This document shows positions 4,539 to 24,991 of a DNA stretch of 32,000 nt, piece by piece. The notes beneath the pieces were generated by a model, which saw only the letters and a program-made list of their open reading frames with translations, ran no database searches and was not told the DNA's origin. Numbering within the stretch: position 1 is the first letter of the stretch; every line of letters begins with the position of its first letter. Origin of the DNA: an archaeon (GTDB taxonomy: Archaea; Asgardarchaeota; Thorarchaeia; Thorarchaeales; Thorarchaeaceae); NCBI GenBank assembly GCA_024275415.1, contig JAJRZD010000015.1, positions 10,058 to 42,057 on the forward strand, written 5' to 3'. The translations under genes and the position numbers were made by a program.

Positions 4539-4707
4539 TGAGCTACACCCTTTCCATTGTGGACGGGGTAACTACTGCAGTCCGTGTCGCTTCCCAAAGC
4601 AGTCCCAGAGAACCCGAGCTTGCTCATCTGCCGCAATAGCCGCCCCGTTGTTTTGTCTCTCACAACCTTCCCCAAAACAAGCCTAAATTATGGCGGGCTC
4701 GGCGGGA

Positions 4708-4737
4708 AATTCCACCTCCATGGGAGTCATGGGGGTA
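4708..4737 (-). other. tRNA-Lys T-loop intron (59/60), 30 nt
   Basis: TACCCCCATGACTCCCATGGAGGTGGAATT. It forms a 9-position stem with a 5-nt loop; the central helix TTCA/GGAA has one A.G mismatch; the T-stem is the outer helix. Confidence 0.85.
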
Positions 4738-4753
4738 TTTGAACCCGCGGCCC

Positions 4754-4788
4754 ATCCCCGTGCAAAGAGAGAGATGCTCTCTTGCTCT
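4754..4788 (-). other. tRNA-Lys intron at about 43/44 (42/43 also possible), 35 nt, relaxed BHB
   Basis: AGAGCAAGAGAGCATCTCTCTCTTTGCACGGGGAT. It has a long internal hairpin and an imperfect central helix ACCT/GGGG. Confidence 0.75.
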
Positions 4789-5349
4789 TCAGGTTAAAAG
4801 CCTGCTGCGCTACCTAGCTGCGCCACGAGCCCCTATTGCCATATGATTCCCGAGCAACGATGAGATGCACGTTGGCATATGACTACCATACAGCATTGCT
4901 AACGGTCATGCATGATCTGGGAAGCGGTTGTGCTGAGCACTCGAATCCACCTGTGTGAAAATAAAAGGTTTTCCTTGGAACGAAATTTAGAGTATCAACT
5001 AACTTGGAGATTTGCGGCCTATGAGCTTGTCCACATATTGTATTCTGAGGTAAAAAGGATTTTGCTGGCACGGGGAACGTGTCAGGTATAACGGGTAATG
5101 GAAGTTCCGGCTGAAAGAAGACGTGTGGAGGTCACAATAAGACAGACTGCGACCGGGTTTGTTTATGCCAAGATTGTCCTGCTGGCGTTTTTACTCAATG
5201 AGTCGGTCATGGGTCTCTTTTAATACATGTCACAATGTTTTTATTATGACCATCGAAAGTCGGCGAGGTTCTACTGGAATGACCGGGAGAGCCGTCTATT
5301 CTCTGGACCAGTTGTGCGATCCTGTCCGGAACAAGAGCGTGATAATAAC

Positions 5350-6003
5350 ATGTCATCAAGAAGTCGTCAAGCAGCGGCACGAACAAGGGACAAATGGAGA
5401 GAGAAAGTCTGGTATCAAATCAGGTCTCCGGAGTATTTTGGCGAGAAGGATATCGGGATGACCCCTGCTGGAAACCCCGAGTTATTGATCGGTCGCACTG
5501 TAAAACCCACGCTCTACGATTTGACAGGTAATTTCGACCAAATCCATGTGAAGCTGAGATTCAAAATCATCGAGGTTGTAGGTCAGGAGGCTAAGACCGT
5601 ATTTCACGGTCATGAATGGAGTTCAGATTATCTCAGAGGGCTAGTCAGGAGAGGTACTTCTCGTATCGACTGGATAGGCCCTATTCTTACAAAAGATGAC
5701 TACCTCATGCGGATCTCCGTAATCGTATTCACTACGTCACGGTCAAAGACCAGTCAGGAGCATTCAGTTAGGAAAGCTATCGAGAAGGTCATCAGGGCAC
5801 ATGCAAAGAAGCATGTCTTTGACGAGCTGGTCACTAAGGTCGTCCTTGGCGAGCTTGCTTCGGAAGTCCGTGAAGAGGTCAAGAAGATAGTACCGATCCG
5901 AGAATGTGAGATTCGAAAGAGCAAAGTGCTCAAAGGGCCCGAAGAGGTCAAGGCGCGCAGAGCAAGGCTTCGAAGGGGCACCGAGAAGAAGAAGTCGGGC
6001 TAG
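5350..6003 (+). CDS. rps3ae: 30S ribosomal protein eS1 (S3Ae)
   Basis: RDKWREKVWYQIRSPEYFGEKDIGMTPA, GRTVKPTLYDLTGNF, DYLRGLVRRGTSRID, KIVPIRECEIRKSKVL. Start moved to ATG 5350. Confidence 0.95.
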   Translation: MSSRSRQAAARTRDKWREKVWYQIRSPEYFGEKDIGMTPAGNPELLIGRTVKPTLYDLTGNFDQIHVKLRFKIIEVVGQEAKTVFHGHEWSSDYLRGLVRRGTSRIDWIGPILTKDDYLMRISVIVFTTSRSKTSQEHSVRKAIEKVIRAHAKKHVFDELVTKVVLGELASEVREEVKKIVPIRECEIRKSKVLKGPEEVKARRARLRRGTEKKKSG

Positions 6004-6079
6004 ACCTGTCCCTCAAGTCAGAGGGACAGATGTGTGCTCTCAGACGCAGACCATTCACAATCAGGCAATATTACCCAGT

Positions 6080-6433
6080 TCAGGCATTCATCCGTTTCAG
6101 CTTGTCAAGCGCCTGAAGAAGAAGCACCATCAGGTTGGCAAGTTTTGTGAGGGCCTCTGTATCGTTCTCTCGTTCTATGAGGACATTAAGCGTTCTTAGC
6201 TTGATGAGGAGTGTTTCTTTGAGTTCTGGGAGCAGTTCTTTCACAGTCCGTGTTTCGACTTCCTCATCAGAAGATGCATAGACAATCCTCCTGTCGCACA
6301 TCGCACAATAGATGTCATCACCCACCTTGAGGAGGGGTGTCCCGCACTTAGGACAACCATCTGCAAGCATTGTCGCACCCTGCTGTAACAACTGGGCCAT
6401 CCTCTTCACCGATGTGTCCTTTCTATCGTTCAT
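6080..6433 (-). CDS. UPF0148 / Sjogren autoantigen p27-like Zn-ribbon protein
   Basis: KRMAQLLQQGATMLADGCPKCGTPL...IYCAMC followed by a helical C-terminus. Start moved to ATG 6433. Confidence 0.85.
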   Translation of the reverse strand: MNDRKDTSVKRMAQLLQQGATMLADGCPKCGTPLLKVGDDIYCAMCDRRIVYASSDEEVETRTVKELLPELKETLLIKLRTLNVLIERENDTEALTKLANLMVLLLQALDKLKRMNA

Positions 6434-6595
6434 CGTGAATCCAGTGATGGATGTCCTCAATCCTTTATGAGAGTTGTTGGATGCTATGTACATCCATTCC
6501 TCTGCCGAAAGAATGATATGAGGATGTTATCCACCTCTCACTTGTTAGTTCGCACTGCATTTCGTGCGTCGAGACAATTTCAGAGGTGAGTCCCA

Positions 6596-6859
6596 ATGGA
6601 CCCCGAAGTACAGAGAAGCATAGACCAATCAAAGCACCTTTTGAGGCAAATCGCTGATGACTCGTCAGTGCCTCGAAACATAAGACGTGCAGCCAATGAA
6701 GCTATTGCGGTTCTTGAGAATGAGAGCGATTCACCTGCTGTCAGGGCTCAGAATGCGATTGCAATACTTGATGACCCTAGTCAGGATCCGAACTGTCCGA
6801 ACCATGCCCGAACTAAAATCTGGCATGTATCCAGTTTACTGGAACCAATTCGCGACTAG
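6596..6859 (+). CDS. UPF0147 family protein
   Basis: DSSVPRNIRRAA, SPAVRAQNAIAILDD, DPNCPNHARTKIW; 87 aa is typical for the family. Confidence 0.88.
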   Translation: MDPEVQRSIDQSKHLLRQIADDSSVPRNIRRAANEAIAVLENESDSPAVRAQNAIAILDDPSQDPNCPNHARTKIWHVSSLLEPIRD

Positions 6860-6942
6860 AGCTAGTGCGGACCAAGAACTGAGATTCGTACCTTCCTGTC
6901 AAAGAGAAGGTCTGTAGCTCATGTAGCACGGACGGAAAATGC

Positions 6943-8400
6943 GTGATTAAGGCTCGAATAAGAGGAATCTATTCACAATCATTGACGCGGATAATGCTGC
7001 AGAACCATTTTGAGATGGTTCAACCTACTCCTGAAGTGGCTAGAAGGTTTGGCCTCCCCTATCGAGCGGAAATCCCAGATGTTGATATCTGGGATAGAAG
7101 TGACCTACAGGGCATCGTGGCCATTGCTTACGAGTCAATCCTGAGAAAGCTCACCGATGTGCTTCGGAGAAGGCTTGGATGGGTGATAACCCGCACCCCA
7201 AGAGTCGCAAAGAGCTCAATCTACAAGGGAGTTGTGATAGGTAGGGATGATAAGACTGGATACACTCGCGTGAACATAGGGCCAATCATTGGGTTGCTAC
7301 CAGAGTTTTCTCCCGAAAGGGGAAGGTCTATCATGGTTCAAGTGAAAGCGCATGATTATGGTCGGAAAGCACCAGTACTCTCCTCTAACATCACGATTCC
7401 GGGAAAAGCCGCCGTACTTCTTCCAGATCCTGTCGTTCGGCTGAGCACCAAAATCAAGGGACAAAAAGAACGTGGGAGCCTCTTGGCGATAGGAAGGAAA
7501 CTGAGAGTTCATACAGAGCCATGGGGAATCCTCTGGAGGACAGCAGCAACTAGGCTCACTGATGAAGAACTCTACAATGAGATTGAGAACCTGTTGGACA
7601 CTGCACAAAAGATAGAGGATAGCTTCAATCAGATTGCAGAAACTGGTCTCCTGTTCGAGGGAACCAGCAATGCGGATATAGAGTTCCCAGCAGAGGTGAA
7701 AGAAGCACTGGATAAGACCCGTGCGAAGATACGACCGACCATCCAACATCATCATTTCTACAAGAGTGCTGGATATGCTTCGTTAGTGGATTTCGCAGAG
7801 ATGATGATTGAAGATAGGCCAAATGACCGTGAATATGTCAGGTCGAAGCTCGAAAAGGTGATTGGCAGGGATATGCCCAAAGTTGAAGATCCCATCAATA
7901 TAGTGCACACGAAACTAGACGGACGCTGCATAGTATTGTCGAAAGGAAGAGTTGTGGATAGCAATAACAATGCGTTTCTGATACGAAGACAGTTCAGGCA
8001 TACCACACGAAAGCTAAAGATGACTCCTGAAAGCGTTGACGGTGTAGTTGTTCCTAGAGATGAAGGCGACTATTCCATCACGAGGGTAGTTCCAGGGTCG
8101 ATGATCCTCATCACAGACTATTATTCACGAGAGAACAAACATAAGGGAACCTATGTGAATATCAACACTGGTGTAGAGGTATATCCAAGCAATGGTTCTG
8201 TCCCGAGCACTATACGGTATGTTGACCTTGAGATAGATGTTGTCGCACCAAAGAGAGGACAGACACGAATCATCGATCAGCATCTCCTGAAGCGTGCTGT
8301 ACAAAGGGGATTCATAACTGAGGAAATGGCAGACCTAGCACGGGCAAAGGCAAAGGCGGAGTATAGACGCTTGGTATCGAATGTGAAAAGTATTGCATGA
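6943..8400 (+). CDS. fau-1: FAU-1 RNA-binding protein/ribonuclease (RNase E/G-like N-terminal region plus DUF402)
   Basis: KARIRGIYSQSLT N-terminus, WGILWRTAA, IQHHHFYK, and C-terminal KGTYVNINTGVEVYP...YVDLEIDVV. Confidence 0.88.
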   Translation: MIKARIRGIYSQSLTRIMLQNHFEMVQPTPEVARRFGLPYRAEIPDVDIWDRSDLQGIVAIAYESILRKLTDVLRRRLGWVITRTPRVAKSSIYKGVVIGRDDKTGYTRVNIGPIIGLLPEFSPERGRSIMVQVKAHDYGRKAPVLSSNITIPGKAAVLLPDPVVRLSTKIKGQKERGSLLAIGRKLRVHTEPWGILWRTAATRLTDEELYNEIENLLDTAQKIEDSFNQIAETGLLFEGTSNADIEFPAEVKEALDKTRAKIRPTIQHHHFYKSAGYASLVDFAEMMIEDRPNDREYVRSKLEKVIGRDMPKVEDPINIVHTKLDGRCIVLSKGRVVDSNNNAFLIRRQFRHTTRKLKMTPESVDGVVVPRDEGDYSITRVVPGSMILITDYYSRENKHKGTYVNINTGVEVYPSNGSVPSTIRYVDLEIDVVAPKRGQTRIIDQHLLKRAVQRGFITEEMADLARAKAKAEYRRLVSNVKSIA

Positions 8401-8401
8401 G

Positions 8402-8650
8402 TCATTCTAACGATTCACATGTGCGAATTGCAAGATCAATCGCGCTCATGATGTCCTCTATCGTCGCACTGAAACTATTGATACCCCGATTGCACTTGAT
8501 ATAAATCCTAAGAGATTCATTAACTGTTTCAGAACATATCTCGATTCCTGTTGGGAGTGGCGAATTATCAGGGCTGATTGCTTGTAGGACGAGATTGGCA
8601 TCAGTAGATGATTTGAATTCTAGTTCGATGGTTGCTTGCAGAACGGTCAT
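8402..8650 (-). CDS. pcc1: KEOPS complex subunit Pcc1
   Basis: 82 aa with AISPDN and SFSATIEDIMSAIDLA; lies downstream of rps15 and the DHH gene, the conserved archaeal order. Confidence 0.85.
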   Translation of the reverse strand: MTVLQATIELEFKSSTDANLVLQAISPDNSPLPTGIEICSETVNESLRIYIKCNRGINSFSATIEDIMSAIDLAIRTCESLE

Positions 8651-9966
8651 GCCTCCTTGAGAAGTATTGTCAAAGCTTCTATTATGGTTTCATGGGTGTC
8701 AGCAGAAGTATCCGGTATCCTGACCGCTCTTGCTGAAACAGACGAGTGTTCGATAGCCCTATTGAAAAGTGCAGCTGACACGGAGAATAACGTGAGTGGT
8801 TTCTTCCATACCAAGGTGGTTGACCCTTCAGAAACCATTATGACGAACATGCACTCCTTAGTAATGTTAGAATCAAGAGCTATGCGTCCTACATCAGCAA
8901 GCGTGTGTTCTGAGAGGGCTCTTGTGTCTACAATGACATAAGTACTGGAGATATCTACGCTACCATCGTTCTCATCCAACAGAATATTCAACTTGGCGAC
9001 ATCTGAAATGGTTTCCTTGCAATGGCGTCGATATTCAGATATCATGTCTGAGAGAGATCGAGCACGATCTCCAATCAAGACGCTCAACAGAACTCCTGTG
9101 ATTTGTCTGCTCCATGCCATACGTGCGAGGGAAGATATACTTGAGAGATATCGCAGAGGGCTTGTCCGAGGTTCTAACAGGAATTCATAGTCATTGCCAA
9201 GGATATGTTCCACTACTGAAGGATGTAATGATGGTAAGAGCACTCCGTTAAGTTGGCGAGCTTCGTCGGATGCAAGCTCGCTGAGAGGGGATCTCCACTT
9301 GCTGAAACGTATGCCTGCGTCATCAAAAATCTTCTGGCAGGCTTCAGGATTACCACTGAGCGAGTCAAGATAGGGATAGATGTTATTTGTAAATACCTCA
9401 TCTAAAGTGAGAAAGTTGAAACCAGGAATCTTGAAGCCTTTTCGAGGGGCAAGCAGTCCTTCCTCGACCGAAGTTTGGATTATCTTAGAAGCTTCGTTTC
9501 CAGAGGCATCCTGAAGCAGTGAGCCGATTGCAGCAAGGGCCACTTCAGCAGCCTCAATGTCCATCGTTGCCAATCCAAATGCACAAGCCTCGACGGCAGC
9601 AGGGGATGAAACAGGTTCCTTTTTGATAGAGGTGGTCTTAGGATAGAACGTACCTCCAATCGGAAGAAAACAGTCGGGGTTGCTTGGTTTACCAATGACA
9701 TTAACGCCAACCGACAAAATCAGTGTTTCAGTGCCATCATAATAGTACTTCTCAGCTTGGGCGACAGGGATGATGGGGTTGCAAAAGGTCACATGAAAGA
9801 GAAACTTTGCTCGTAATGCCGCACGACAGAGTATTGATGTTGCTGTTACAGAGTGAGGTAGATAAGAACTGATAATCACGACCTTTTTGAAACTCTTCAG
9901 ATCAATATCTACGAATCTGCTCTTGAGCTGATTCCTAAGAGAATCAGGGAGGATGCTATCAGTCAT
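8647..9966 (-). CDS. RecJ/DHH-family GAN (Cdc45-related) orthologue with degenerate catalytic motifs
   Basis: Occupies the rps15-[DHH]-pcc1 position. Family-like segments: PYLDSLSGNPEACQKIFDDAGI..WR, ILGNDYEF, IGDRARS..EYRR. The HxDxDG, D(L/M)G and DHH motifs are replaced by SSYLPHS, SVG and IGG-like residues. Confidence 0.75.
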   Translation of the reverse strand: MTDSILPDSLRNQLKSRFVDIDLKSFKKVVIISSYLPHSVTATSILCRAALRAKFLFHVTFCNPIIPVAQAEKYYYDGTETLILSVGVNVIGKPSNPDCFLPIGGTFYPKTTSIKKEPVSSPAAVEACAFGLATMDIEAAEVALAAIGSLLQDASGNEASKIIQTSVEEGLLAPRKGFKIPGFNFLTLDEVFTNNIYPYLDSLSGNPEACQKIFDDAGIRFSKWRSPLSELASDEARQLNGVLLPSLHPSVVEHILGNDYEFLLEPRTSPLRYLSSISSLARMAWSRQITGVLLSVLIGDRARSLSDMISEYRRHCKETISDVAKLNILLDENDGSVDISSTYVIVDTRALSEHTLADVGRIALDSNITKECMFVIMVSEGSTTLVWKKPLTLFSVSAALFNRAIEHSSVSARAVRIPDTSADTHETIIEALTILLKEA

Positions 9967-10002
9967 CTCAAGGAGGACAAGACAGAGTGACCCATGATAA
10001 AA

Positions 10003-10461
10003 TTATCTAAGGAGCACCGCGGCCTTGTCAGGCGAGTATTTCCAGTCGGCAGGAAGAACCTGTTTCTTTCGATAATATTTTGAGAGCCTGTGAATCTTGC
10101 TCTCGACAAGCTGGAGTCCCCGTTTGGAAACAAAGTCTTTCTTTCCGTGTTCCTCAAGGTGGCGCCTAATCTTGAGTGCCTTTGCGATCATGTTCCGCAA
10201 ATCCTCAGGAACTCTGCGCTGAAGGTCATGTTCTTTGATAATCTGATTGATTCTTTTGCCGGTAATCACTTTCACAAGGGGGATTCCATACTGGTCACGA
10301 AGGATCAGCCCAATCATGCTTGGAGTGTTACCTGCCTTTGCAAGCTCTACAACTTTCTCTTCGATCCAAGCTGCATCCTTGTCCATCCATTCAGGGACTT
10401 GTAGTGTAGATGGGCGCTTGCTACTTGACTGACCTTTTCGTCGTGTGTGCATTCTTGCCAT
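10003..10461 (-). CDS. rps15: 30S ribosomal protein uS15 (archaeal S15 / eukaryotic S13)
   Basis: MARMHTRRKGQSSSKRP, PSMIGLILRDQYGIP, VPEDLRNMIAKA, GLQLVESKIHRLSKYY. Confidence 0.97.
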   Translation of the reverse strand: MARMHTRRKGQSSSKRPSTLQVPEWMDKDAAWIEEKVVELAKAGNTPSMIGLILRDQYGIPLVKVITGKRINQIIKEHDLQRRVPEDLRNMIAKALKIRRHLEEHGKKDFVSKRGLQLVESKIHRLSKYYRKKQVLPADWKYSPDKAAVLLR

Positions 10462-10581
10462 AGTGTTAACCTCTTGAGGGGAAGGTTTGACATAAACCGG
10501 CTATTCTCGATGGGCTTAGGACTGTGGATATAAACATTATCGTTTGTACGACATCGCCGGCAAAGGATTGACAAGCACATG

Positions 10582-11226
10582 TCAATGATACCGGCCTCGC
10601 TCACGAATCGCATCCATCCTTTCGAGAACAGGCTCAGCCTCTTTGCCCAACTCATCTACGTACCCTTCAATCGTTCGTGAGAGCATATTCTCTTGCATAT
10701 CCCAATGCGATGTTTCCAACGCCCGTTTGATGAGGTGCAAGTCCACCCCTTTCATCTCAACAGTGGCGTTCATTTCAGACAGACCAAAATCAATTATCCA
10801 TGTTTTTTCATTTGAAGTTATCAACAAATTGCTGGTAGTAGGATCTCCGTGAACCATCCCACCCCGATGGAGTTTGGCAATGATGCGACCAAAGCGATAA
10901 CACAAGTTCCCCAAGGTGGTCGAGCCCAGTGTTGAAGCGACCTGCTTCAGAGGTGTTCCGGGAATATAATCCATCAAGATGCTATAATCATTAAGGTCAA
11001 TAGCATGCACAGCGGGGGTGGGCACTCCAAGAGACCGCGCAACATTGAGACCCTTGCATTCGCGGCTAGTCCTACTTGCTCGAAGTGAACTGTCGATAGC
11101 AGGGATGAGATAGGGTTTACTGGGACGTGTCTTCAGGACAAATGACCGATCCCATAGCGCGACCTTTGTGATGATCGATTCTGCTCCAATGGCTATGTGT
11201 GCTCCCTCAAGTCTCATTCTTTCCAC
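10582..11226 (-). CDS. bud32: KEOPS kinase Bud32 (standalone, not fused to Kae1)
   Basis: GAESII, LKTRPSKPY, VHGDPTTSN, IIDFGLS, MKGVDLHL, IRERGRY. Confidence 0.93.
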   Translation of the reverse strand: MERMRLEGAHIAIGAESIITKVALWDRSFVLKTRPSKPYLIPAIDSSLRASRTSRECKGLNVARSLGVPTPAVHAIDLNDYSILMDYIPGTPLKQVASTLGSTTLGNLCYRFGRIIAKLHRGGMVHGDPTTSNLLITSNEKTWIIDFGLSEMNATVEMKGVDLHLIKRALETSHWDMQENMLSRTIEGYVDELGKEAEPVLERMDAIRERGRYH

Positions 11227-12200
11227 CCGATATCCTGTTCATCAGTCCTCCATTTCGGGAGGACTCCCGAAGATGAAATTTCAAGGGTATCGCCAACCCC
11301 ATATTGCAGAATCCCAGTCCATGCAATCATCGCGCCTTGATCCCCAGCCAGAGGAGGAGACACACGATGGAATCTTGCACCATGCCGGTCTGCCACACCT
11401 TGGAGTATCTCTGTGAGCCTGTTATTCCTTGCAACGCCACCTGTTAGGAGTACTTCATTCTTCTTTGTATGCGCAATCGCCCGTTCAGCAACCTCTGCCA
11501 GCATCCCAAAAGCTGTTTCTTGGATGCTATAGCAGATGTCATCCAGAGGCAGTCCTTCGTCAAAAAGACGACGCGCAGACGTGAGCATTCCCGAATAGCT
11601 TATGTCCATCCCTTTCACGGAATATGGAAGCGTATGATATGTAGAACCCATTTTTGCCAATTTCTCGACCTTTGGACCCGCTGGGAACCGCATCCCCACA
11701 TGTCTTCCAAAGACATCAAGCATATTCCCAATCGCAATATCAAGAGTTTCGCCAAAGGTACGGTATCTACCTCCTGCAAAGGCGATGACCTGAGAGTTCC
11801 CGCCCGATACATAGATGGTGACTGGGTCATTAAAACCAGACTCCAAGCTTCCAATCTCTATGTGTGCCACACAGTGATTGACACCAATCAATGGTACTCC
11901 CAGATGGAGGGACAATGATCGCGCCATGGTGGCAGTAGTGCGTAGGCACGGTCCAAGACCTGGGCCTTGTGAAAAAGCGATAATGTCAATTTGCTTAGGG
12001 GAAATGCCGGCATCATCGATAGACTGCCGTATCAGTAATGGACCAAGATACGCATGGTGCTGACTTGCCTCGCGCGGGTGTATTCCGCCCTCATCAGGTC
12101 GTAACATGTCCCATACATTCGATAACACCAGACCCTCACTAGAAACAATCCCTGCACCGAATGAATGAGCGGTTCCTTCCAGACCGAGGCAGATGGTCAT
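11214..12200 (-). CDS. kae1: tRNA N6-adenosine threonylcarbamoyltransferase Kae1
   Basis: LGLEGTAHSFGAG, GGIHPREASQHH, AFSQGPGLGPCL, VNHCVAHIEIG, YVSGGNSQV, DQGAMIAW, WRTDE. Start moved to ATG 12200 (12233 is possible). Confidence 0.96.
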   Translation of the reverse strand: MTICLGLEGTAHSFGAGIVSSEGLVLSNVWDMLRPDEGGIHPREASQHHAYLGPLLIRQSIDDAGISPKQIDIIAFSQGPGLGPCLRTTATMARSLSLHLGVPLIGVNHCVAHIEIGSLESGFNDPVTIYVSGGNSQVIAFAGGRYRTFGETLDIAIGNMLDVFGRHVGMRFPAGPKVEKLAKMGSTYHTLPYSVKGMDISYSGMLTSARRLFDEGLPLDDICYSIQETAFGMLAEVAERAIAHTKKNEVLLTGGVARNNRLTEILQGVADRHGARFHRVSPPLAGDQGAMIAWTGILQYGVGDTLEISSSGVLPKWRTDEQDIGWKE

Positions 12201-12307
12201 ACTGATATGCTCCTTGCACTTGTTGACCAGCATCTTCTTGACGCTGTCATGCTTTGTAGCAAAGCCTTTATAATCCACACTAAGGGGCACATCGAGAGGT
12301 AAAGGCA

Positions 12308-12553
12308 ATGTCACACGAAAAAATGCCCATCAAAGCACTCGAGCAGAACATCCACGAAATTGTATCAATCAAGCTCAAGGATCAACGGATTTTCAGAGGG
12401 CGCCTGTCCCGATGTGACGTCTATATGAACCTCACTCTGGAAGACGCTGAGGAACTCGTGCTTGGAGGGGATGAAACAACGACCATTGCCAAGTATGGCG
12501 AGATTCTTCTGAGAGGGAACAACATCCTCTGGATACAGATTCCCGAGGAATAG
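12308..12553 (+). CDS. Sm-like archaeal protein (SmAP/LSm)
   Basis: Sm1 motif VSIKLKDQRIFRGRLSRCDVYMNLTLEDAEE and Sm2 motif ILLRGNNI. Confidence 0.93.
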   Translation: MSHEKMPIKALEQNIHEIVSIKLKDQRIFRGRLSRCDVYMNLTLEDAEELVLGGDETTTIAKYGEILLRGNNILWIQIPEE

Positions 12554-12617
12554 ATGTGCTGCTTCGTTTCGATAGTGAGCAATAGGTGGCCAAAGCATCC
12601 AATTAGTCCCTTCGATG

Positions 12618-12644
12618 TTTTATAACGACAACTTTAATATAAAA
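12618..12644 (+). promoter_or_regulatory. Putative TATA elements for tRNA-Asp
   Basis: TTTTATAA (12618-12625) and TTTAATATAAAA (12633-12644), upstream of the tRNA at 12692. Confidence 0.5.
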
Positions 12645-12731
12645 CCGAGATTCGATGCAGATTACCTGATGTGCATCATCAGGACAACAGAGCCCCTGTA
12701 GTGTAGTCCGGCCTAGCATTCAAGACTGTCA

Positions 12732-12761
12732 ATCCAATGCGATTGGCATCTTGGAGCGGAC
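12732..12761 (+). other. tRNA-Asp anticodon-loop intron (37/38), 30 nt
   Basis: ATCCAATGCGATTGGCATCTTGGAGCGGAC. Central helix CTGT/GCGG, 3-nt bulges, inner stem TCCAA/TTGGA. Confidence 0.9.
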
Positions 12762-12782
12762 CTCTTGAGACCCGGGTTCAAA

Positions 12783-12812
12783 TGTGTCCATGATTCCCAT
12801 GAACATTGGAAA
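12783..12812 (+). other. tRNA-Asp T-loop intron (59/60), 30 nt
   Basis: TGTGTCCATGATTCCCATGAACATTGGAAA. Central helix TTCA/TGGA, two 3-nt bulges, 9-position stem with an ATTCC loop. Confidence 0.9.
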
Positions 12813-12978
12813 TCCCGGCGGGGGCGCCACATCATCTCTCATTCTCAATTGTTCAAATCGATAAGTTGCAGGAATCTCTCTGTCAATCTCACATCTTCTC
12901 TGCAGCGATTGTTATAATAATTAGATGTGCATTGTTAATAATAATGATTTATATGAGTAAAATCAGATATATCCTTGT

Positions 12979-16814: not shown

Positions 16815-17076
16815 CGATACTCAATTTCACTTTCCAGTACTTTAACTGCGATGTTACACGAGTATTATCACTCGGAAAGCGCCAATCCCCGTAGGGACAC
16901 TCGAACATCCTAACACTTATCGAAAAGGAGTGCTAGTATCACCGATTGAAACGGCATACCACTTCCTCTCGACTGTTTTGGTGGGCCCGAACCATCACTA
17001 TCTGACAAGTCTATAATCTCGTTGTTCAAAAGCAAGTTGGTCGGGACGGCCGGATTTGAACCGGCAACCGATGGAT

Positions 17077-17107
17077 AGCTGTGAACGCCATCCGAACTGG
17101 CAGCTCT
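17077..17107 (-). other. tRNA-Tyr anticodon-loop intron (37/38), 31 nt
   Basis: AGAGCTGCCAGTTCGGATGGCGTTCACAGCT. Perfect central helix CTGT/ACAG. Confidence 0.9.
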
Positions 17108-17122
17108 CTACAGTCCATTGCT

Positions 17123-17151
17123 TATGGCCCGATACTCGGAAGAGTATCGGA
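17123..17151 (-). other. tRNA-Tyr D-arm intron (22/23), 29 nt
   Basis: TCCGATACTCTTCCGAGTATCGGGCCATA. Perfect 9-bp stem CCGATACTC/GAGTATCGG, TTCC loop, central helix TGGC/GCCA. Confidence 0.88.
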
Positions 17152-17332
17152 CTGCCAGATTGAGCTACGTCCCGGGTGAGCAAACCGCAGTATTGTTTTG
17201 CCTATAAGGATTACTCCGTGGCATTTGCTATCTAGATGTGGCGGGTCTGGACATGTTAATTGAAGAGGCAGTAGATAATACGTACCACACAGGTTTTAAC
17301 TGGTTCGCGGTGGCCATCTCAATGAGTTTGCA

Positions 17333-17830: not shown

Positions 17831-17928
17831 TGGCGGGCCCGGTGAGATTCGAACTCACGAAAACCAACTTTCTCCGAATGTATTGATTATAGGAGGCTGG
17901 TGCCCTATCCTGGCTAGGCAACGGGCCC
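17831..17928 (-). tRNA. tRNA-Arg(CCU) with a canonical 37/38 intron (20 nt, 17870-17889)
   Basis: GGGCCCG TT GCCT AGCCAGGATA GGGC A CCAGC CTCCTA [TAATCAATACATTCGGAGAA] A GTTGG TTTTC GTGAG TTCGAAT CTCAC CGGGCCC G CCA. Central helix CTCC/GGAG. Confidence 0.94.
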
Positions 17929-17973: not shown

Positions 17974-19239
17974 TCATTGAGCGACTCTTGCAGTAATGGA
18001 GGCTCCTTCTTCCATGGCATCTACGATCATGCTGCCTTGGCGGGTCTTGATACGGATAGAGCTCTCACCGTTCCGTCCGACCATGATAGTGGTCAGGTAC
18101 ATATCATCGGCGAAAATCTCAAGGCGTTGCTTGGCATATTTTCGTCCCGCGTGGATCGTGACCTTCTTCTTGGAGTAGCTGATTGAAACCTTGACTGTTT
18201 CACCGGGTCTGGCACGACGTGCCACCTGTTCTCTTGAAGTGGTGCGGGGGCCTCCTCTAACTGGGACAACGACCTTCTCGCCTCCGAAAGTGAACATCTC
18301 GTATTCTAACACACCAAGCTCGAAGTCACGAACCTCCACTACCGGTCGCGCGAGGTCTCGTTGGGAGCTGCTCATCCCGGTGGGCATCTTCACCTTCAAT
18401 GAGAGAGATGACACCTTCGCCACTCGCCCTGCTTCAATATGGATGACTGTATCCACAGTGCTTGGAAGTTGACCAAGTTCTACCCGGCCCCCAAGGGTAA
18501 GACGCTGAATTGCATCGATTGATGAACCTGCATGGACAACTCCCACCATTCCAACTCCGGCAGATCGCAGGTCAGCATAGGCTGAGAAATCACTTGATTT
18601 CCGCAATTCGTCGTATATCACGTAGTCAGGTCGGACAAGAAGAAGGATATCGGCTGCTTTCTCCATGCTCTTGTCAAGAGGAGAGTATTGTACGATGTCA
18701 TCCGACACTTGAAGGTCACGCGGTTGTTCGAGAGTCTTTACTACGTTACCCTTCTTGCTGTAGAATTCGGCAAGCGCAGCAGAAAAAGTCGACTTGCCAG
18801 AGCCAGGACTGCCAGTAACGAGAATTCCTTCGGCACGTGTTTCCAATCGCTTCATCAACTTCGGGCTGAGGTCATAATCGCCAATTGCAAGCTTCTTGAT
18901 TGGCCTGATTGCAGAGATTTCGTATTTGTCAGCGAAAGGAGGCATAGCGATGGCTATCCGCAGATTTCTTAACTGGACGACGGCAGCACCTTCCTCCTCA
19001 ATCTCGATGAATGACTGACGGTCGTTCCGAGCGGTTTCGATAATTGCCTCAGCTAAGATATCGAGTTCCTCATGAGTAAGGATTCTGTCAGATAGCTCCA
19101 CCAATGACCAATCACCAGGAGCACCGCGTTTTGCACGGGGAGGGTTGTTCTCAATCAAGTGCACACTCATGGTGTGTTCGTCAAAGAAAGCGTCCAGCTT
19201 TAGGAGCTCCTCATCATCATCAATCCAGTCATCATTCAT
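17974..19239 (-). CDS. PINA-type (PINc/VapC-family) P-loop ATPase lacking the N-terminal PIN domain
   Basis: FFDEHTMSVHL, AKRGAPGDW, RIAIAMPPF, Walker A GSPGSGKST, TLEQPRDLQV, LLLVRPDYVIYDE, GMVGVVHA. The probable start is ATG 19239, overlapping the endonuclease stop; the track's longer N-terminus lies inside the endonuclease gene. Confidence 0.85.
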   Translation of the reverse strand: MNDDWIDDDEELLKLDAFFDEHTMSVHLIENNPPRAKRGAPGDWSLVELSDRILTHEELDILAEAIIETARNDRQSFIEIEEEGAAVVQLRNLRIAIAMPPFADKYEISAIRPIKKLAIGDYDLSPKLMKRLETRAEGILVTGSPGSGKSTFSAALAEFYSKKGNVVKTLEQPRDLQVSDDIVQYSPLDKSMEKAADILLLVRPDYVIYDELRKSSDFSAYADLRSAGVGMVGVVHAGSSIDAIQRLTLGGRVELGQLPSTVDTVIHIEAGRVAKVSSLSLKVKMPTGMSSSQRDLARPVVEVRDFELGVLEYEMFTFGGEKVVVPVRGGPRTTSREQVARRARPGETVKVSISYSKKKVTIHAGRKYAKQRLEIFADDMYLTTIMVGRNGESSIRIKTRQGSMIVDAMEEGASITARVAQ

Positions 19240-19873
19240 CGTTCGTGTTCTCTCCAATCTTGCGAAGTTTCGTCTGAGCGACCTTGTAGTAGTTGACCTC
19301 CCCATTCTGATCAACAAGCGCGAACAACAGGTTCTTTCGAGCAGCAACCGCTGCGTCAGTAACCATGTTCAGGTCGTGCAGCGATATGGGATTTCCTTCC
19401 TTCATGACGTAGATTAGTTGTTTTGCTGTAGCCACGCCAGGCTTATCACCACGAGCATAGACCCTGAACCCGATTCCGCCACCGAATCCTTGACGGACAG
19501 CATATCCCCTGCTACGCAGATCTCGGAAGACCAAATACTTCACCCAAAGATTCGGGTCTTCAGGCAACAGCGTCTTTACAATGTAGGGTGCACCGATTCT
19601 TGTACCATCAGGAAGAGAGAGAGTAATGCGCTTCCTTTCGAGAAGGTGCAAAATCTCGATGGGTTCGAGTTCTAATCGTCCATCATCAAGACGGGCACCA
19701 TAGAAGCCTTGTTGTGATATCCTGTCAGCATCGCTTCGGTTCACATACCCTTTCAGATTTTCGAATATCATCTCTGAAGGTTCTTCCTCAGTTTCATCGG
19801 CATCCTCTTCTTTTTGTTCTGCCAAACCGGGTGTCATTTGAGGATTGCTTTCGTCGGGATCGGACAAATTCAT
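19232..19873 (-). CDS. endA: tRNA splicing endonuclease subunit, probably the structural (non-catalytic, beta) subunit
   Basis: LELEPIEILHLLE, YLVFRDLRSRGY, FRVYARG, ARKNLLFALVDQNGEVNYY. No His at or near the catalytic His position. Confidence 0.88.
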   Translation of the reverse strand: MNLSDPDESNPQMTPGLAEQKEEDADETEEEPSEMIFENLKGYVNRSDADRISQQGFYGARLDDGRLELEPIEILHLLERKRITLSLPDGTRIGAPYIVKTLLPEDPNLWVKYLVFRDLRSRGYAVRQGFGGGIGFRVYARGDKPGVATAKQLIYVMKEGNPISLHDLNMVTDAAVAARKNLLFALVDQNGEVNYYKVAQTKLRKIGENTNDE

Positions 19874-24883: not shown

Positions 24884-24991
24884 GGGCCGCTAGTCTAGCC
24901 CGGCTATGATGCCTCGCTTACACCGAGGAAGCCTTGAAGGTTTTCTTCGGGGTCTCGACGGTCGCTGGTTCAAATCCGGCGCGGCCCACCA
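24884..24991 (+). tRNA. tRNA-Val(UAC) with a non-canonical variable-region intron 44/45 (30 nt, 24930-24959)
   Basis: GGGCCGC TA GTCT AGCCCGGCTA TGAT G CCTCG CTTACAC CGAGG A [AGCCTTGAAGGTTTTCTTCGGGGTCTCGAC] GGTC GCTGG TTCAAAT CCGGC GCGGCCC A CCA. Confidence 0.92.

Follow-up and report, generated by a model that had tools for sequence, protein, structure and literature searches.

Two tRNA genes with T-loop introns

The window analysed here is a stretch of 32,000 nucleotides (nt), positions 10058-42057 of contig C117 of a metagenome-assembled genome (MAG) of Thorarchaeota, a lineage of the Asgard archaea. The assembly, labelled G000, comprises 3.5 Mb and is 93% complete. Two tRNA genes in this window, tRNA-Lys(UUU) and tRNA-Asp(GUC), are each interrupted by two introns, and in both genes one of these is a 30-nt bulge-helix-bulge (BHB) intron located in the T-loop at position 59/60. 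The tRNA-Lys(UUU) gene lies on the minus strand at 4691..4832 and measures 142 nt, including the encoded CCA; its T-loop intron spans 4708..4737 and has the hairpin loop ACUCC. A second Lys intron of 35 nt at 4754..4788 was placed by ARAGORN at about 43/44, at the junction of the anticodon stem and the variable region. The tRNA-Asp(GUC) gene is found on the plus strand at 12692..12829 (138 nt, CCA likewise encoded). It contains a canonical 37/38 intron of 30 nt at 12732..12761 and a T-loop intron at 12783..12812 with the loop AUUCC. An earlier note on this DNA had reported both T-loop introns, and the sequences, coordinates, 30-nt lengths and 59/60 position it gave are exact. The placement at 59/60 is set by the BHB geometry; from the sequence alone, the junction has a 1-nt ambiguity in Lys and one of up to 3 nt in Asp. 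Both introns occur in the context CGGGTTCAAA|TCCCG, and this T-arm is absent from the five other tRNAs of the window, as the same note stated.

In their intact form, neither gene yields a tRNA in ARAGORN. Excision of both introns from the Lys gene results in a tRNA-Lys(ttt) of 77 nt with a clean cloverleaf, and excision of the T-loop intron from the Asp gene results in a tRNA-Asp(gtc) of 78 nt in which the canonical 30-nt intron is called. The number of introns is therefore exactly two per gene, and a tRNA-Asp with three interruptions, which had been considered, is ruled out by this result. Standard tRNA finders miss such genes. With the Rfam tRNA model, the Lys gene stays under the threshold and the Asp gene is undetected; in the canonical-intron mode of ARAGORN, run on the whole genome, multi-intron genes are mis-assigned and the Asp gene is missed again. 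Within the assembly, the tRNA-Lys(UUU) gene is the sole match and the tRNA-Asp(GUC) gene is the sole Asp gene matched. Since both genes are single-copy in the assembly, both must be functional.

Both introns fold as the earlier note described, with 1 nt, a 9-position stem, a 5-nt loop, a 4-nt strand of the central helix and 2 nt. The outer helix (h) is the T-stem, with 5/5 pairs in Lys and Asp. The hairpin (h') is formed by intron positions 2-10 with 16-24, and in both introns 8 of the 9 positions are paired and one is mismatched. The central helix consists of T-loop nucleotides 54-57 (UUCA) with intron positions 25-28; it is fully paired in Asp (4/4; two pairs involve G, one is G-U) and 3/4 paired in Lys, where an A-G mismatch adjoins the bulge. 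This 4-bp helix separates two 3-nt bulges, and a splice site after the second bulge nucleotide restores UUCAAAU exactly. The T-stem and the hairpin are present in the minimum free energy fold of both precursors, and the central helix is partly recovered in that of Asp. The bulges, the flanking helices, the cloverleaf after excision and the presence of endonuclease and ligase genes all agree with an archaeal BHB (hBHBh') intron.

The gene for an EndA subunit is located in the window itself, at 19232..19873 on the minus strand, and encodes a protein of 213 aa with a PF02778 N-terminal domain (E 1.6e-10) and a PF01974 catalytic domain (E 7e-19). A second gene with the EndA domain PF01974 is present on contig C69 of the same assembly, and one RtcB gene is present on contig C127. 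Asgard EndA has been reported as an (alpha-beta)2 enzyme, in which a loop confers a broad substrate range (PMC5829648), and the two putative paralogues of G000 fit this heterotetrameric, broad-specificity form. During maturation, the T-stem would serve as the outer helix of the precursor, nucleotides 54-57 (UUCA) would pair with the 4-nt strand near the 3' end of the intron, and the remainder would form the 9-bp hairpin. EndA would then cut both 3-nt bulges and RtcB would join the exons, giving UUCAAAU. The EndA gene at 19232-19873 shares the window with seven tRNA genes, intron-bearing or intron-free.

A class of 30-nt T-loop introns and its turnover

Orthologues of the Lys and Asp genes were collected by BLAST with both genes across the family, and some of them have a 30-nt insert at the exact same place with a different stem. 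Nine orthologous introns, found by exon similarity, were aligned without gaps and used as seeds. When the BHB structure is laid on these nine introns, 91% of the cells are paired, and double (compensatory) changes are present in all nine hairpin pairs. This level of pairing and covariation was reached in 0 of 500 shuffles, and slid registers score far lower. A covariance model (R1) built from the nine seeds matched 66 of the 86 genomes of the family, at about 130 sites, and 85 of the 151 genomes sampled across the Asgard phylum, belonging to 16 of 27 families. The Lys intron is the best hit of this model with 61.9 bits, and the Asp intron scores 59.1 bits. A covariance-model search of Asgard genomes had been put forward in the earlier note, and this search finds the class to be widespread.

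From the fetched R1 sites in the family, 91 distinct introns were collected, 80 of which are exactly 30 nt long. The class has one layout, in which 1 nt is followed by a covarying stem of 9 bp with an A-N-U-Y-C loop of 5 nt, then by 4 nt and finally 2 nt. These introns are found in genes with at least 15 different acceptor stems, and the hosts, with anticodons read heuristically, are Lys, Asp, Thr, Ser, Phe, Ile, Leu, Asn, His, Val, Pro, Trp, Gly, Ala and others. The insertion site is 59/60, with a few introns at 58/59, and in all members a YGRA-type strand pairs with the T-loop UUCR. In the table of position frequencies, the consensus reads C7-a-T9-G10-A11-n-T13-t-C15-C16-a-t-G19 and then T25-G26-A27-A28, with frequencies of 91% for T13, 89% for G10, 85% each for A11 and C16, 66% for G19, 60% for T9 and 59% for C7. 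Because this table gives the same sequence, the core CCATGAyTCCCATG that the Lys and Asp introns have in common is the class consensus. The class comparison also bears out the earlier view that the apical hairpin is conserved beyond what BHB splicing needs.

The same kind of intron was observed independently of the motif. A motif-free T-arm census of G000, used in its filtered version, in which tRNAs without an encoded CCA such as Asn are missed, resulted in six T-loop introns, with the loops AUUUC (three times), AUUCC, ACUCC and UCUUC. When 185,579 species were scanned for the exact pattern, true matches came almost only from Thorarchaeota and other Asgard MAGs, and from one Thermoplasmata MAG; the bacterial matches have neither a T-stem nor a hairpin. 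In the MAG labelled as Thermoplasmata (JASHSU010000060.1, 2716-2756), a 30-nt 59/60 intron of the same form is present, with a perfect T-stem and a hairpin of 8/9 pairs, which may be real or may be a binning error.

In addition, the GAAA(A)U tail at the 3' end of an intron is complementary to the loop AUUUC of the same intron. When positions 11-15 and 26-30 are compared over 80 class introns, weak covariation is found between loop position 14 and tail position 27 (Fisher p = 0.02, not corrected for relatedness), and the paired fraction between loop and tail is 0.625 versus 0.599 +/- 0.010 for shuffled partners, a weak signal that is likewise not corrected for relatedness.

The distribution of these introns is patchy among close relatives. 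Across the family, tRNA-Lys(UUU) genes have introns at 37/38, ~43/44, 53/54 and 59/60 in varied combinations, and intron-less genes also occur; in six genomes of one genus, four different configurations were found. The ~43/44 intron of Lys has a related intron at the same site in six other genomes (G005, G003, G013, G020, G008 and G011). The canonical Asp intron is 26/30 identical to that of G003, 24/30 to that of G011 and 23/30 to that of G046. In tRNA-Asp, the congeners show a mosaic of canonical and T-loop introns (L021, L025, L033, L089, L269, L270), so that in some genome pairs the canonical intron is conserved next to an unrelated T-loop intron and in others the reverse is observed. G000 combines canonical type I with T-loop type b, G003 combines type I with type a, G004 combines type II with type a, and G005 has type II and no T-loop intron. 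The mosaic fits repeated loss and re-insertion, and it fits equally well a recombination that shuffles intron alleles across near-identical exons. The patchy presence among congeners and the Asp mosaic therefore indicate rapid turnover.

The class appears to reach beyond tRNA. The gene rpoA2 of G000 (RNA polymerase subunit A'') has a 30-nt insert at positions 7983-8012 of contig C117 (L218:1484-1513, minus strand), ~2.05 kb before the start of the window. The insert splits the Phe codon of the conserved TLRTFHYAG motif (TLRT|FHYAG) and introduces in-frame stops. It folds into a perfect 9-bp stem with the loop AUUUC, a 3/4 central helix and BHB-compatible flanks. The same insert is found in G006, of the same genus, and in G007, of another genus, where the stem has compensatory changes. 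In all eleven other relatives that were read, the rpoA2 frame is uninterrupted and exactly 30 nt shorter. As judged from its sequence, the insert is probably an mRNA BHB intron spliced by EndA and of the same form as the T-loop introns. This case suggests that the class is not restricted to tRNA and, if confirmed by RNA data, it would extend EndA-dependent mRNA splicing to Asgard archaea.

Other introns of the genome share some of these features. The lengths of the G000 tRNA genes cluster at 77-78, 105-111 and 136-142 nt, which makes ~30 nt the usual size of an intron here, whatever its position. The canonical introns are also ~30-nt hairpins with 5-nt loops, and their loop sequences are different; the single-excision solver used for this view sets unreliable boundaries (20 nt instead of 35 nt for Lys), and the description of canonical introns is qualitative. 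The tRNA-Asn(GUU) gene (contig C10, 60091-60255, plus strand) is interrupted three times, and its 3' end reads GCTA where nearly all other tRNA genes of G000 encode CCA; its 59/60 intron is 32 nt long with a short stem and a large loop. Within the window, further tRNA genes with introns outside the T-loop are located at 17041-17174 (minus), 17834-17928 (minus) and 24884-24991 (plus), and the Val(UAC) gene has a 30-nt hairpin insert with the loop GUUUU in the variable region. A genome-wide scan for the hairpin plus loop gave 144 matches versus 76 in a reversed-genome control (about 2-fold), few of them BHB-flanked outside tRNA genes.

Relation between the Lys and Asp introns

The earlier note had regarded the Lys and Asp introns as homologous and as signs of an intron moving between tRNA genes by gene conversion or reverse splicing. 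The figures on which this was based are correct, as the two introns are identical at 18/30 positions without gaps and at 13/14 positions in the core (intron positions 6-19). Against random sequence, a 13/14 match at the same register has a probability of ~1e-5 as a rough estimate, and beyond these two sites the core motif occurs nowhere in the 3.5-Mb assembly. With only two sites, a multicopy hairpin resembling a repetitive extragenic palindrome (REP) or a miniature inverted-repeat transposable element (MITE) was rejected. The pair looks less special within the class. In a comparison of 2,985 pairs, each made up of two 30-nt introns of the class that come from unlike tRNA types, with a mean identity of 13.5/30, 18/30 is reached by 9% and 13/14 in the core by 0.5%. 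Outside the core, the Lys and Asp introns are identical at 5/16 positions, which is background level. The Lys intron comes closest to introns of Asn, Ser and Thr in other genera (19/30), and the Asp intron to a Ser intron (21/30). Gapped alignment gives the same picture, and nearest-neighbour and gapped analyses of 30-nt sequences resolve no phylogeny. In 45 same-genome cross-tRNA pairs, the maximum identity is 20/30, below the ~70-80% or more that marks a transposed family of the Thermoproteales type, so that no recent copying is visible; the same position and the shared BHB-flanking sequence, which also mark such a family, are both present.

The part of the earlier claim that stands is that the two introns are related as members of one intron family that spread between genes: a family at the same site in many tRNA genes requires past spread between genes. 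The genome is also Asgard, as that note had supposed. A specific and recent Lys-Asp transfer or gene conversion does not follow from the data, given a core that equals the class consensus, the 5/16 identity outside it, and equal or closer introns in other tRNAs of other genera.

The earlier note had also proposed that the intron depends on the T-arm sequence CGGGTTCAAATCCCG as a target. In G000, the T-arm [C/G]CGGGTTCAAATCCCG[C/G] is shared by six tRNAs. A 59/60 intron is present in Lys and Asp, a 53/54 intron in Thr(CGU) and a Gly gene, and no intron in Thr(GGU) and Gly(UCC). Four other T-arm sequences host 59/60 introns in the same genome, in Phe, Ile, Asn and probably Trp, and across the class the host T-stems vary widely (GAGGG, GCCGG, GCGTG, GGGAG and others). 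Identical T-arms without an intron and varied T-arms with one contradict the target dependence. The absence of this intron from other tRNAs is true only of the window; elsewhere in the genome, Phe, Ile, Asn and probable Trp genes have 59/60 introns. The feature that the 59/60 hosts have in common is the universal T-loop UUCR, and 59/60 is the site at which the T-stem can act as the outer BHB helix, as the anticodon stem does at 37/38.

It is likely that both introns are functional BHB introns belonging to a large, stereotyped class of ~30-nt T-loop introns, and that their common core reflects class ancestry or a shared constraint and not a traceable recent transfer. Members of this class occupy 59/60 in tRNAs of many kinds, both in Thorarchaeota and in further Asgard lineages; their stem evolves by compensatory change, their A-N-U-Y-C pentaloop and its closing pairs are conserved, and we infer that the class spread by copying into BHB-competent sites. 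Several points weigh against this interpretation. Splicing of the Lys and Asp introns is predicted from their sequences. Most class members come from the nine-seed model R1, which favours seed-like loops; in introns of Lys and Asp orthologues, which were not chosen by intron sequence, the central loop T is present in 15/15 and the first A in 13/15. Loops from the other Asgard families show more variety, many of them being rich in U. Furthermore, a 13/14 core is reached by just one of the 45 same-genome cross-tRNA pairs, Lys-Asp itself; none of the other sampled genomes of the genus has the Lys T-loop intron; and in the Asp gene the T-loop intron agrees with those of the congeners G003 and G004 at no more than 15/30 positions, next to a canonical intron that is 26/30 identical to that of G003. 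Given these last three observations, the two introns may still be linked by a lineage-specific event.

Such an event would be a direct transfer, in which one T-loop intron was copied into the other gene or replaced the intron there, by reverse splicing or gene conversion, and the outer stem later diverged with compensatory changes. The observations specific to the pair and to the genus favour this explanation, and cross-tRNA introns of the same genus are indeed slightly more alike than those of different genera (14.3/30 versus 13.4/30, permutation p = 0.005, not corrected for relatedness). However, 0.24 pairs with a 13/14 core are expected among 45, which makes one such pair unremarkable, particularly as the pair was chosen post hoc. 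The identity outside the core lies below the class background, the core is that of the class, each intron is matched equally well or better by other tRNAs of other genera, and the shared T-arm predates the introns, being present in intron-less orthologues. A direct transfer is thus regarded as unlikely. Common descent could also be missing altogether if T-loop introns arose independently in each gene and selection, through EndA preference, hairpin stability or the avoidance of misfolding, led to the same 30-nt hairpin with a U-rich loop. The site 59/60 is structurally favoured, with the T-stem supplying the outer BHB helix, ~30 nt is usual at all intron positions in G000, including the canonical hairpins with their different 5-nt loops, and no cross-tRNA pair above 80% identity was seen. 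We know of no plausible process that would repeatedly create a 30-nt hairpin de novo inside a T-loop. A loop that stays conserved in 15 or more tRNA types, and also in an mRNA insert whose exon surroundings are unrelated, is more easily explained by ancestry plus constraint, and BHB cleavage as it is understood needs no particular hairpin length or loop sequence (PMC4090602). A preprint, which reports no general intron copying in other Asgard families (10.64898/2026.10.13.758758), agrees with independent origins, which on balance are considered quite improbable.

The insertions could also stay in the RNA, the genes being pseudogenes or the tRNAs working with an enlarged T-loop. At 93% completeness, other gene copies could be unassembled; yet these are the sole detected genes for essential isoacceptors, their intact exons match those of intron-less orthologues fully or almost fully, the BHB motifs of the inserts covary across genomes, and genes for EndA and RtcB are present. 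This makes unspliced insertions extremely improbable. A more far-reaching idea, which is speculative and rather unlikely, is that the 30-nt hairpin with the A-N-U-Y-C loop is the signature of an Asgard-native mobile family of BHB mini-introns. Such introns would settle in any transcript with a stem and a complementary tetranucleotide, including the rpoA2 mRNA, the apex would be bound by a factor or would act in the excised circular RNA for splicing or re-insertion, and the Lys and Asp copies would be insertions in this lineage.

With membership in the stereotyped class as the preferred interpretation, the T-loop introns of Thorarchaeota form one class of fixed length, with a covarying stem and a conserved loop, that is present in many tRNA species and turns over quickly between congeners. 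Introns of this type would escape tests for intron copying that are based on an identity threshold. They also call for caution, as a motif common to two introns of one genome does not equal evidence of recent transfer.

Comparison with known intron systems

Non-canonical BHB introns with a proposed transposition have been described in Thermoproteales (Sugahara 2008; Fujishima 2010, in the summary given in PMC4090602). As in the present case, the introns are short BHB introns located at non-canonical sites, the T-loop among them; one gene can hold several, related introns occupy a common position in different tRNAs, and the enzyme is a heterotetrameric EndA of broad specificity. In Thermoproteales, 28% of the introns belong to cross-tRNA families of at least 80% identity, according to the preprint (10.64898/2026.10.13.758758), whereas the best same-genome pair here reaches 20/30. 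The lineage is also a different one, and in the Asgard introns kinship is visible only as architecture, length and loop consensus.

Interrupted tRNA genes are also known from Asgard archaea. In PMC11291895 (Valentin-Alvarado 2024) and in the same preprint, many non-canonical and multiple introns are reported, mainly at 37/38 and in the T-arm, with BHB-competent sites, repeated gains and genes missed by standard tRNA callers, as is the case here. Both works centre on Freyr-, Jordi- and Atabeyarchaeia, and in the passages that were read and word-searched, a fixed 30-nt hairpin, a conserved pentaloop and Thorarchaeota are not described. The preprint finds no general copying route at an identity of at least 80% in other Asgard families, and the lack of same-genome pairs above 20/30 in G000 agrees with this.

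For the rpoA2 insert, the closest precedent is the cbf5 pre-mRNA of crenarchaea, which also has an EndA-type intron in a protein-coding gene with a patchy presence among relatives (PMC2738675). It is the only experimentally confirmed precedent for such an mRNA BHB intron. The host gene and the phylum are different, and splicing has been confirmed experimentally for cbf5, whereas for rpoA2 it is deduced from sequence.

The canonical 37/38 intron of archaea has the same hBHBh' structure, in which a stem already present in the tRNA supplies the outer helix, the central helix has 4 bp, and each of the two 3-nt bulges is cut after its second nucleotide. In the introns described here, the outermost stem is the T-stem instead of the anticodon stem, and formation of the T-loop, and with it of the tRNA elbow, has to await splicing. 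The Lys and Asp introns belong to a known kind of intron, of which the stereotyped class and its reach into mRNA are possibly new.

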